Of a stretch of DNA of 64,000 nt, positions 7,305 to 8,887 are shown piece by piece. Source of the stretch: Escherichia phage KM01. Below the pieces are notes generated by a model that was given only the letters and a program-made list of their open reading frames with translations, made no database searches and was not told where the DNA came from. Positions within the stretch are counted from its first letter, which is position 1; every line of letters begins with the position of its first letter. Position numbers and translations under genes: made by a program. The DNA lies in the sequence record PV018827. The stretch is one strand, 5' to 3'.

Positions 7305-8363
7305 ATGGCTAATCCAACTTTATTTGTATCGTATGACCAGAATGGTAAAAAACTTTCTTTTGCTAACTGGATTTCTGTTCTGTCCCCTCAGGATACCCCG
7401 TTCGTATCTATGACCGGTAAAGAGTCTATCAACCAGACTATCTTTAGCTGGCAGACCGATGCACTGGCAAGCGTTGACGGTAATAACGCACACGTCGAAG
7501 GCTCTCGTGCTGAAGACGGCGAAATGAAACCGACTGTTATCAAATCTAACGTTACTCAGATTCTGCGTAAGGTTGTTCGTGTTTCTGATACTGCTAACAC
7601 CACCGCTAACTACGGTCGTGGTCGTGAACTGATGTATCAGCTGGAGAAGAAAGGTAAAGAGATCAAGCGTGACCTCGAGAAAATCCTTCTGTCCGGTCAG
7701 GCTCGTACCGACGTTCTGGCTGATCAGTACCTGACTAACTCTGCAACTGATCCTGCAACTGTTGGTCTGAACGACACTCATGCAGCTCGTAAGACTGGTG
7801 CATTCCAGTTCCTGTGTGCTCACGGTGGTCTTGCTGGTGGCGTTGTTGACAAGACCAAGAATGGTCCTGCTGACCCGGATACTGGTGCAGTAACTGTTAA
7901 AGTTGCACAGAATGCTTCTAACCCGACCACTAACATTGGTTTTGACGAAGCTGATATCTTTGATATGACTCTGCAACTGTATACCGCTGGTTCTGAAGCA
8001 GATATCATCATGATTAACCCGGCTCATGCTAAGATCTTCGCTGGTCTGCAAGAAAATACTCAGGGTTCACGTAAGCGTATCTTTGAGAACACCAAGCAGT
8101 TCATCTACGAAGTTAACAGCATCACTGACCCGCTGGGCCAGAGCTACAAAATCATCGTTAACCGTTGGATGCCTACCGATGCAGTTTACTTCTTCCGTAG
8201 CGCTGACTGGACTCAGATGGTTCTGCGTGCTCCGAAACGCACTGAACTGGCTAAAGACGGTTCTTACGAGAAGTGGATGATTGAAATGGAAGTTGGTCTG
8301 CGTCACCGCAACCCGTACGCTTCCGGCGTTCTGTTCACTGCCGCGGGAAAGGTGGTGGCGTAA
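7305..8363 (+). CDS. Major capsid protein
   Basis: 352 aa; strongly biased high-expression codon usage (CTG, CGT, GGT, AAA); position after scaffold; followed by Ig-domain ORF in -1 frame. Confidence 0.6.
   Translation: MANPTLFVSYDQNGKKLSFANWISVLSPQDTPFVSMTGKESINQTIFSWQTDALASVDGNNAHVEGSRAEDGEMKPTVIKSNVTQILRKVVRVSDTANTTANYGRGRELMYQLEKKGKEIKRDLEKILLSGQARTDVLADQYLTNSATDPATVGLNDTHAARKTGAFQFLCAHGGLAGGVVDKTKNGPADPDTGAVTVKVAQNASNPTTNIGFDEADIFDMTLQLYTAGSEADIIMINPAHAKIFAGLQENTQGSRKRIFENTKQFIYEVNSITDPLGQSYKIIVNRWMPTDAVYFFRSADWTQMVLRAPKRTELAKDGSYEKWMIEMEVGLRHRNPYASGVLFTAAGKVVA
8345..8351 (+). promoter_or_regulatory. Candidate -1 programmed ribosomal frameshift slippery heptamer G_GGA_AAG
   Basis: Canonical X_XXY_YYZ heptamer in capsid frame, 4 codons before capsid stop; -1 frame is open from 8285 into the Ig-like ORF. 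Confidence 0.5.
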
Positions 8364-8374
8364 CAGTAGACAGT

Positions 8375-8887
8375 GTGACTGTTAGCCCTGCGTCTTTAGC
8401 AAGTCTAGAGACAGGGGCTACTCGGCAGTTCACTGCAAGCGCGGAGAAAAGTGATGGTTCTACCGAAACAACTGGCTTTACTTGGTCAGTGACAGGAGGT
8501 GGTTCTATCACTCAGTCTGGTTTGTATACTGCTCCGAGTGCGTCTCAATCCACTGATGTATCCATTACTGCAACTTTAGAAGGTGTTTCTGGTACAGCAA
8601 CCATTTCTGAAATTGTTGCTCCTGCTCCTACTATTGTAGCTAAGGGTCCAATTACGGGTAAAACTGGTGGTTCTTCCACTAACTTCACTACCATGTTTAC
8701 TGTAACTAATTCTACTGCTGCGGATTACACGTTTGTTGTAACCCCTACAGAAGCTGGTACAGTAAGCGCCGCTGGTGCGTTAACCTTAGATGCTGCTGCA
8801 AGTGGCGAAGTTACTGTTCAAGCAAGTTTGACAGCTGACCCATCCATCAATGCAACATGCACTTTTACTGGTGTAACACCTGCTTAA
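8375..8887 (+). CDS. Ig-like (BIG2-type) domain, probably a C-terminal extension of the capsid made by -1 frameshift
   Basis: ORF in -1 frame relative to capsid; Ig-like sequence VTVSPASLASLETGATRQFTA...; no convincing RBS for independent initiation. Confidence 0.5.
   Translation: MTVSPASLASLETGATRQFTASAEKSDGSTETTGFTWSVTGGGSITQSGLYTAPSASQSTDVSITATLEGVSGTATISEIVAPAPTIVAKGPITGKTGGSSTNFTTMFTVTNSTAADYTFVVTPTEAGTVSAAGALTLDAAASGEVTVQASLTADPSINATCTFTGVTPA

Follow-up and report, generated by a model that had tools for sequence, protein, structure and literature searches.

The window, i.e. the whole 64,000-nt stretch of Escherichia phage KM01 DNA that was analysed, carries a major capsid gene that is followed, in the -1 frame, by an open reading frame encoding Ig-like domains (Table 1). 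Residues 12-344 of the capsid protein match the Pfam family SU10_MCP (PF17236; 259.4 bits, E 6.4e-77) and residues 1-351 match the SU10 major head protein (PDB 7z45; E 9e-235), and on this homology the KM01 protein is assigned as a full-length SU10_MCP HK97-fold major capsid protein of prolate podophages. The gene ends with the codons GCC GCG GGA AAG GTG GTG GCG TAA (...TAAGKVVA*; stop TAA 8361-8363), in which the codons GCG GGA AAG contain the heptamer G_GGA_AAG in the capsid frame. In the -1 frame, a TGA at 8282-8284 is followed by an open stretch from 8285 up to TAA 8885-8887. An earlier note, made from the sequence alone, had placed the end of the capsid ORF at 8363, the heptamer at 8345-8351 in the capsid frame, and a -1 frame open from 8285 into an Ig-like ORF at 8375-8887, and each of these readings was reproduced here.

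Table 1 Coordinates of features at the KM01 capsid locus (positions in the window)
Feature	Position	Strand	Details
Shine-Dalgarno AGGAG of the major capsid gene	7290..7294	+	10 nt before ATG 7305; read from sequence
Major capsid protein ORF, 0 frame	7305..8363	+	352 aa, 38.69 kDa; HK97 fold family SU10_MCP
Slippery heptamer G_GGA_AAG	8345..8351	+	Capsid frame; ends 9 nt before the capsid stop codon
-1 frame extension	8351..8887	+	178 codons + TAA; begins with Gly linker GGG
Weak 7-bp hairpin UAACAGU / ACUGUUA	8361..8384	+	Starts 9 nt after the heptamer
First Ig-like (Big_2) domain	8366..8599	+	Extension residues 6-83; Pfam PF02368
Conserved stable hairpin within the Ig-coding sequence	8375..8433	+	Apex stem 8392-8399/8405-8412; 23 nt past the heptamer
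Second beta-rich domain, probably Ig-like	8621..8884	+	Approx. residues 91-178; weak; second Big_2 stretch, PHROG 13745/33551
Intrinsic terminator	8892..8925	+	Directly 3' of the extension; 10-bp stem + T tract (terminator scan)

After a slip of one base at the heptamer, the first codon read would be GGT (8351-8353) and the fusion would read ...TAAGK-GGGVTVDSVTVSPASL..., giving a predicted protein of 527 aa and 55.65 kDa compared with 38.69 kDa for the plain capsid protein; the correct KM01 fusion CDS is join(7305..8351,8351..8887). The earlier estimate of a ~55 kDa capsid form with a ~175-aa BIG2 extension is close to these computed values (178 aa for the extension). Among the tryptic peptides of the predicted fusion, GGGVTVDSVTVSPASLASLETGATR has its first eight residues encoded upstream of the GTG at 8375. 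Trypsin cleaves after K349, and the junction peptide put forward in the earlier note, AAGKGGGVTVDSV, would therefore be absent from tryptic digests, while a junction-spanning peptide of the predicted fusion, TAAGKGGGVTVDSV..., is obtainable with chymotrypsin or Glu-C.

In-frame X_XXY_YYZ heptamers (Y = A/T) were counted in the mechanically called ORFs of the window that reach 100 aa, both strands included. Thirty-one were found, and the GGGAAAG at 8345 is the sole in-frame copy of that sequence. It also has the longest -1 continuation of the set (178 codons), and the continuation is 33 codons or fewer in 29/31 cases; the combination of a heptamer with a long open -1 frame exceeds chance. From what is generally known of such sites, transcriptional slippage is unlikely at an A run of only 3 nt.

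The Pfam profile Big_2 (PF02368) was matched best by residues 6-83 of the extension, with 25.3 bits against a cut-off of 22.8, a narrow margin, and this match sets in ahead of the GTG at 8375, the nominal start. The extension is also matched by PHROG 13745, described as 'Ig domain containing protein' (E 1.3e-80), and by PHROG 33551. The second domain weakly resembled the Ig-like end of T5 pb6 (E 0.27), and a PDB sequence search with the extension returned only weak Ig-like matches (E at least 0.09). A single-sequence AlphaFold model of the extension was all-beta, with a mean pLDDT of 52 and a pTM of 0.34, too poor for a fold search. The predicted domain type is settled as Ig-like by the Pfam and PHROG matches.

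No Shine-Dalgarno-like run was found in the 20 nt before the nominal GTG (GTGGCGTAACAGTAGACAGT), bearing out the earlier remark that the Ig-like ORF has no convincing ribosome-binding site and only a GTG as its nominal start; for the following gene, AAGGAGG precedes the ATG at 8988. A scan of the region between the capsid ORF and the Ig-like ORF revealed no terminator or promoter. SU10, Paul and Privateer have an annotated terminator at the site equivalent to the intrinsic terminator behind the extension.

KM01 is a phiEco32-like Kuravirus, being 99.9% identical to MN03 and 98.4% identical to phiEco32 over 7305-8887. The heptamer shows no variation across 14 distinct phage sequences, representing the three genera Kuravirus, Nieuwekanaalvirus and Suseptimavirus, and across 10 kuravirus contigs recovered from a metagenome scan with the junction pattern, which also returned 8 chance matches. 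In the 14 sequences the three synonymous positions inside the heptamer never vary, whereas neighbouring synonymous sites do. Counted from the heptamer, the -1 extension stays open for 178-545 codons in 13/14 of the named relatives and in the 10 metagenome contigs; the exception is the SU10 record (KM044272), in which a 1-nt difference closes the -1 frame after 11 codons. Linker indels between relatives are of +3 nt only, and distal domains have been swapped between relatives with the junction kept. From the capsid stop to the possible start codons, the variable columns fall at -1-frame codon positions 1/2/3 in 6/4/18 cases, of 26 each. Behind the capsid stop, pairwise codon differences in the -1 frame number 625 synonymous versus 352 nonsynonymous, with 33 and 22 stop codons present over this stretch in the two remaining frames. 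The first possible start codon varies among relatives, lying at +30, +51, +54, +105 or +144 from the heptamer, and lacks a Shine-Dalgarno sequence. The residues encoded before it (a G/S linker and VTVD(S/T)(V/I)TVSP) hardly vary within the kuravirus group and lie inside the Big_2 domain. The substitution pattern shows that, ahead of any start codon, the sequence is already evolving under -1-frame coding constraint.

Stimulators of -1 frameshifting, either a 3' hairpin or pseudoknot approximately 5-9 nt downstream or a 5' Shine-Dalgarno-like element, are common but not universal in bacteria. No stimulatory element was found at canonical spacing downstream of the KM01 heptamer, and no dnaX-type Shine-Dalgarno-like stimulator was present in the 20 nt before it. 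The weak hairpin at 8361..8384 is uninformative because it is invariant (0/7 pairs vary), and relatives that carry the 3-nt linker insert have 12 nt between heptamer and hairpin. For SU10, a stem-loop spanning the slip site was proposed (Mirzaei 2014; KM01 equivalent CUGCCGC-GGGAAAG-GUGGUGG), and it was rejected as a stimulator here: in the 14 sequences it showed one-sided changes only, with pairing broken in some cells of the comparison, its 3' arm is displaced by the 3-nt insert in many relatives, its local fold is no better than that of shuffled sequences (z = 0.05), and its 5' arm would sit inside the ribosome during decoding of the heptamer.

Further downstream, within the Ig-coding sequence, the hairpin at 8375-8433 has a folding energy of -27.6 kcal/mol (z = -3.92; 1/200 shuffles equally stable). 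Its spacing of 23 nt is well outside the usual 5-9 nt. RNAalifold places the hairpin in the consensus structure, where alignment columns 61/115, 79/93 and 80/92 show double-sided changes, and in one compensatory pair the third base of a Ser codon, free to change synonymously, follows a variable codon's second base in 14/14 sequences; the metagenome contigs added no new base-pair types. It is conceivable, though rather unlikely, that this hairpin tunes the output of the long capsid form as a non-canonical, long-spacer modulator of bacterial -1 frameshifting. Such an effect may arise through slowing of ribosomes just past the slip site and stop codon, or through mRNA processing or stability at the capsid/Ig boundary.

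On the basis of the KM01 sequence, the capsid-Ig protein is very probably made by -1 programmed frameshifting at 8345-8351, as the earlier note had proposed; conservation of the heptamer and frame, coding constraint and published relatives all support this reading, which is not new. The locus has the features of a tandem-slippage site, namely an in-frame X_XXY_YYZ, an open -1 extension, conservation beyond the needs of the 0 frame, and no initiation signals of its own for the extension. In the proposed mechanism, a minority of the ribosomes on the capsid mRNA would slip back one base at G_GGA_AAG, with tRNA-Gly in the P site exchanging its pairing with GGA for GGG, and tRNA-Lys in the A site its pairing with AAG for AAA. 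The slipped ribosomes would bypass the TAA at 8361 and, in the -1 frame, translate the Gly linker followed by two Ig-like (Big_2-type) domains until they meet the TAA at 8885-8887. One gene with one ribosome-binding site would thus yield both the 352-aa capsid protein and a 527-aa form carrying ~18 kDa of Ig-like domains, and the long form presumably co-assembles into the prolate head with the Ig-like domains on the surface. By analogy with lambda G/GT, which has the identical heptamer and the same host, the frameshift efficiency would be a few per cent. The long form would be incorporated into capsids perhaps in tens of copies (SU10 heads have 715 subunits), and an adhesion function may be suggested for the capsid Ig extension.

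The Ig-like ORF could instead be a separate gene translated from the GTG at 8375, its product being a free decoration protein (170 aa, 16.6 kDa) attached non-covalently to the capsid. That a GTG is present there, that two CDSs are annotated in MN03, phiEco32, ShigP1 and others, as in most GenBank records, and that the SU10 structural paper took gp10 as a possible separate minor capsid protein (PMC9509320) are consistent with such a gene. It is nevertheless very unlikely: the GTG has no Shine-Dalgarno sequence before it and is not conserved, many relatives having their first possible start at +105 or +144, within the Big_2 domain; both the -1-frame coding constraint and the Big_2 match (residue 6) begin upstream of it; and the annotators of YW01 and PGN6866 called no gene there. 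Translational coupling, in which ribosomes terminating at TAA 8361-8363 restart without a Shine-Dalgarno sequence at the GTG 12 nt downstream and so produce a free Ig-like protein at a fixed ratio, fits both the closeness of the stop and the GTG in KM01 and the missing Shine-Dalgarno sequence. However, the nearest start lies up to 130 nt past the stop in relatives, the conserved residues GGGVTVDS would stay untranslated, the invariance of the heptamer would be left unexplained, and a long 55 kDa form has been reported in relatives, making reinitiation an even less probable account.

The least probable explanation treats the ORF behind the capsid gene as a relic that is not expressed, with the heptamer a coincidence of the C-terminal Ala-Gly-Lys codons. 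SU10 appears to manage without the extension, and capsid assembly needs none, as would be expected of a relic, but an open stretch of 178-545 codons has been preserved in over 20 genomes, with substitutions biased towards synonymous ones, the distal domains have been exchanged with the junction retained, the three synonymous sites of the heptamer never vary, and capsid-Ig fusions have been kept in independent lineages.

The capsid-Ig frameshift of phiEco32-like phages is already known, having been published for SU10, Privateer and YF01. The SU10, Privateer and YF01 papers credit the frameshift to Savalia 2008 (J Mol Biol 377:774), for phiEco32 gp11/gp12, and the GenBank note on phage Paul likewise credits Savalia 2008 for phiEco32. 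For SU10, capsid forms of 38.5 and 55.4 kDa were listed (PMC4281155), and neither a long isoform nor extra density was seen when SU10 was studied by cryo-EM and SDS-PAGE (PMC9509320; PMC9965538). The lack of a long isoform in SU10 can be attributed to the 1-nt difference in its record, and indicates that the extension is dispensable for capsid assembly. In Privateer, two SDS-PAGE bands were seen at the expected positions and mass spectrometry found the long form in virions (PMC7881722), and the capsid frameshift of YF01 has been described (PMC9965538). A joined capsid CDS is annotated in Paul, YF01 and Privateer, whereas most GenBank records, including that of the nearest relative MN03, list two genes.

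The phiEco32 pair gp11/gp12 (major head protein and 'bacterial Ig-like domain') belongs to the same genus and has the same gene order, heptamer codon and 178-codon extension as KM01. Beside the heptamer, KM01 has GCC for GCT and GGT GGT GGC for GGT GGC GGC, differences that are silent in the fusion, and its short form ends KVVA instead of KVAA. The kuraviruses Paul and YF01 share with KM01 the heptamer, its position and a homologous first Ig-like domain, but have longer extensions (545 and 543 aa, compared with 178 aa) that contain additional distal domains, and a linker one residue longer (GSGG). Privateer, a Proteus phage of the Grimontviridae, also has GGGAAAG at the 3' end of an SU10_MCP-family gene, although its capsid protein is only ~57% identical to that of KM01. 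Its -1 extension is 169 aa and comprises I-set and Big_2 domains, Ig subtypes that differ from those of KM01, and its heptamer is at a different position, abutting the stop (GGGAAAG-TAA), with a hairpin predicted 6 nt downstream.

Outside this group, the major capsid genes of the E. coli podophages T3 and T7 (10A/10B) have a -1 frameshift close to their end, which yields a minor, longer, co-assembling subunit (PMC5009743). The earlier note had given T7 10A/10B as the classic case of an Ig-like domain added by frameshifting; the capsid -1 frameshift stands, but the T7 extension is not Ig-like and that of T3 is (PMC5009743). By their description, the capsid family and slip site of T3/T7 differ from those of KM01. 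Lambda G/GT, from a phage that shares the host species, has the identical in-frame heptamer G_GGA_AAG, separated from the 0-frame stop by a few codons, and a frameshift rate of ~3.5% is attributed to it in a citation within PMC9965538. The G/GT products are tail assembly chaperones that are absent from virions and lack an Ig domain, whereas those of KM01 would be capsid subunits. Salmonella phage SE131 and Cronobacter phage A24 have a second capsid paralogue in which SU10_MCP is followed by Big_2 domain(s), as in the KM01 fusion, and they differ in the route, which is gene duplication and ordinary in-frame translation. In SE131 the annotated capsid gene pair lies at 1985-2923 and 3001-4761 of L020, and no heptamer was found at the end of the paralogue tested (L020 3001-4761). 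The in-frame fusion of a capsid paralogue to Big_2 in SE131 and A24 suggests that the capsid-Ig fusion is the selected product.

The KM01 case itself adds little, as it fits the general pattern in which Ig-like domains are appended to phage structural proteins by frameshifting. The additions beyond the literature are modest: no stimulator at canonical spacing, a conserved hairpin 23 nt downstream, and an in-frame second capsid gene in sister lineages. Most deposited kuravirus genomes, among them the closest relatives of KM01 (MN03, phiEco32 and several RefSeq records), mis-annotate this locus, as two genes or as one gene and a gap. KM01 and the sister lineages together make a small example of two genetic routes to one capsid-Ig product, by a probable frameshift in the former and by a duplicated, in-frame-fused capsid gene in the latter. 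With kuraviruses under development for therapy, and unusual mucin adherence shown by one of them, ES17, it is useful to know that Ig-like domains are probably displayed on the surface of their heads, at a ratio set by frameshifting.

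The capsid ORF matched Pfam SU10_MCP (E 6.4e-77) and the solved SU10 major head protein (PDB 7z45; E 9e-235), and direct reading gave its final codons as GCC GCG GGA AAG GTG GTG GCG TAA. In the -1 frame, a TGA at 8282-8284 is followed by no further stop until the TAA at 8885-8887. The first codon past tandem slippage on the heptamer is GGT (8351-8353), and the fusion reads ...TAAGK-GGGVTVDSVTVSPASL... with an extension of 178 aa. Computed masses were 55.65 kDa for the 527 aa fusion, 38.69 kDa for the short capsid form and 16.61 kDa for a stand-alone product from GTG 8375, the nominal start of the Ig ORF. 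No Shine-Dalgarno-like run was found by direct reading in the 20 nt upstream of this GTG; the gene 3′ of the extension has AAGGAGG preceding its ATG at 8988 (direct reading). Scanning detected no terminator and no promoter-like site between the capsid and Ig ORFs. All coordinates and sequence statements of the earlier note agreed with direct reading and the ORF list.

Features of the capsid-Ig region of KM01
Feature	Coordinates	Strand	Details and source
Shine-Dalgarno AGGAG of capsid gene	7290-7294	+	direct reading
Major capsid ORF	7305-8363	+	352 aa, end ...FTAAGKVVA*, TAA 8361-8363; ORF list and direct reading
Slippery heptamer GGGAAAG (G_GGA_AAG in capsid frame)	8345-8351	+	direct reading
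Stable hairpin inside Ig-coding sequence	8375-8433	+	-27.6 kcal/mol, z = -3.92
Intrinsic terminator, 3′ of extension	8892-8925	+	terminator scan

The extension scored 25.3 bits for Big_2 (cut-off 22.8), and the best stretch covered extension residues 6-83, indicating that the domain starts upstream of the nominal GTG. It also matched PHROG 13745 'Ig domain containing protein' (E 1.3e-80), and a PDB sequence search returned solely weak Ig-like matches. An AlphaFold single-sequence model was all-beta and too poor for use (pLDDT 52). The local gene order is portal, small ORF, scaffold, capsid, Ig, adaptor (SU10_adaptor) and tail fibre. Megablast placed the window in Kuravirus, with identities across 7305-8887 of 99.9% to MN03 and TH06, and 98.4% to phiEco32. 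The same stretch is 96.3% identical in ES17 (MN508615), a mucin- and heparan-sulfate-binding therapeutic phage whose binding was ascribed to the tail fibre, a capsid Ig extension being left out of account (PMC7885116). In Bas86, an HNH endonuclease gene (L026 4082-4594, the Bas86 record) separates the capsid-Ig unit from the adaptor gene, a position where the window has none. Insertion of homing endonucleases is tolerated in the late structural module.

In a chance test, in-frame X_XXY_YYZ heptamers (Y = A or T) were collected from every mechanical ORF of 100 aa or longer on either strand of the window. The capsid site was the only GGGAAAG among the 31 recovered and also had the longest -1 continuation, at 178 codons; at 29 of the 31 this continuation was 33 codons or fewer.

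The junction was compared with those of phiEco32, ShigP1, YW01, SU10, MN03, Paul, YF01, EP335 (Nieuwekanaalvirus), Bas86, EK010 (Suseptimavirus), SGF2, PE006 and TH42, five IMG/VR contigs (some resembling NJ01, ECBP2 and KBNP1711) and 10 metagenome contigs. GGGAAAG was in frame and without variation in every junction collected, and the -1 frame was open for 178-545 codons past it in all except the SU10 record. The shift is followed immediately by a Gly/Ser linker (GGG, GGS, GSG, GSGG, GGSG or GGGG) and then by a near-invariant VTVD(S/T)(V/I)TVSP..., in which Paul has E instead of D. The only junction indels in the alignment were of +3 nt. Downstream of the capsid stop, 6, 4 and 18 columns were variable at -1-frame codon positions 1, 2 and 3, respectively (of 26 each), pairwise codon differences in this frame were 625 synonymous versus 352 nonsynonymous, and the remaining two frames contained 33 and 22 stop codons in the 14 sequences aligned. 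The three synonymous positions of the heptamer (third bases of GCG, GGA and AAG) were constant, while synonymous sites of the preceding codons vary. The earliest ATG, GTG or TTG of the -1 ORF past the capsid stop was at +30, +51, +54, +105 or +144 from the heptamer, and no Shine-Dalgarno sequence preceded the earliest possible start in any relative compared. No general explanation by independent initiation of the Ig ORF, termination-reinitiation or an unexpressed relic survives these comparative results taken together, and a -1 frameshift is left as the only consistent one. The -1 programmed frameshift from capsid to Ig-like domain proposed in the earlier note is thus supported by the invariant heptamer, the open -1 frame and the coding constraint, and KM01 very probably makes the capsid-Ig fusion.

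The capsid-Ig frameshift is correct and was previously known. The SU10 genome paper placed GGGAAAG in CDS9, with fusion to the Ig-like CDS10 'as in phage phiEco32', and gave capsid forms of 38.5 and 55.4 kDa (PMC4281155). Privateer has two capsid bands, the long form being found by MS, and its authors noted that the frameshifted product was previously seen in phiEco32 and SU10 (PMC7881722); two isoforms have been described for 'YF01 and other group phages' (PMC9965538). GenBank gives the capsid as a joined CDS in Paul, whose note credits PMID 18294652 for phiEco32, and in YF01. Most records (e.g. MN03, phiEco32, ShigP1, YW01) have two CDSs, or a gap, and what remains is missing annotation.

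The SU10 record (KM044272) reads gacactgtctactgtt at about 2570-2590 of L003, the SU10 sequence used here (window 8369-8384), where all others have gacagtgtgactgtt or a same-length variant. It is 1 nt longer at this stretch, so that the -1 frame stays open for just 11 codons and the Ig ORF, preceded by two stops, falls in the capsid 0 frame; the difference also forms a perfect 9-bp stem (AACAGUAGA/UCUACUGUU). The closed frame matches the absence of the long isoform from SU10 cryo-EM and gels (PMC9509320, PMC9965538), but is at odds with the 2014 listing of a 55.4 kDa form (PMC4281155). Either SU10 has truly lost the long isoform, consistent with its cryo-EM, or the extra nucleotide is a sequencing error, consistent with the 2014 listing. 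The window is unaffected, as its junction is identical to that of MN03.

The heptamer is identical to that of lambda G/T, which was checked to be in frame in NC_001416, 15 nt upstream of the G stop. The reported lambda frameshift rate is ~3.5% (cited in PMC9965538) and the SU10 head has 715 capsid subunits (PMC9509320); by analogy, we infer that the long form would be a few per cent of these, so tens of copies. No canonical frameshift stimulator was found, and direct reading found no upstream Shine-Dalgarno-like run. The stem-loop proposed for SU10 around the slip site was unsupported (z = 0.05, one-sided changes only), and a weak 7-bp hairpin starting 9 nt downstream of the heptamer was invariant and therefore uninformative. 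RNAalifold recovered the stable, conserved hairpin inside the Ig-coding sequence, and so did MFE or centroid folds for 4 of the 5 relatives folded, Privateer being the exception. Double-sided changes occurred at columns 79/93 (GC 6, UA 5, AU 3), 80/92 (GC 10, UG 3, one broken) and 61/115 (AU 9, GC 3, two broken). Column 79, a silent third position of a Ser codon, changes in step with the second base of a variable codon. The covariation score was above that of all 500 shuffles and of every slid control. Two to three pairs thus carry compensatory changes, on the basis of few independent events. The hairpin begins 23 nt past the heptamer, which is too far for classical stimulation; for Privateer, folding predicted a hairpin 6 nt past the heptamer.

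Elsewhere in the window, an in-frame U_UUA_AAA heptamer lies at the end of an Rz-like spanin ORF (35036-35404, minus strand), and from it the -1 frame extends for 164 codons across an HNH-endonuclease-like ORF (34554-35012, minus strand). The N-terminal stretch IEGIEEFLSYDEVSGKLTW of the latter precedes its first GTG, and we take it to resemble a typical HNH-endonuclease N-terminus. The next ORF (34340-34639) has a lipobox and is o-spanin-like in appearance. At least 80% of 34554-35404 was covered in only 8 of 94 matching phage records, and listed relatives without the region (phiEco32 and TH06 included) miss about 545 bp, so the HNH-like ORF is probably a mobile insertion between the spanin genes.

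Among more distant relatives, the Privateervirus capsid is ~57% identical and has the same heptamer, but sited elsewhere, abutting the stop, with a -1 extension of 169 codons that carries I-set and Big_2 domains; the Privateer record is a joined CDS annotated 'frameshift from major capsid protein; verified via mass spectrometry'. The heptamer was absent from the Aeromonas, Vibrio, Cronobacter A24 and Salmonella SE131 relatives. Two to four tandem major capsid paralogues were observed in SE131, A24 and Aeromonas APT65 (L022 1069-3927). In SE131 (L020 1985-4761) and A24 (L021 2992-5096), a second capsid copy is fused in frame to one or more Big_2 domains, an alternative to frameshifting for producing a minority Ig-bearing capsid subunit. 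Since some lineages use the frameshift and SE131 and A24 an in-frame fused paralogue, the capsid-Ig polypeptide is the conserved product, with two routes to it, consistent with how acquisition of Ig-like domains is generally seen (PMC5009743).
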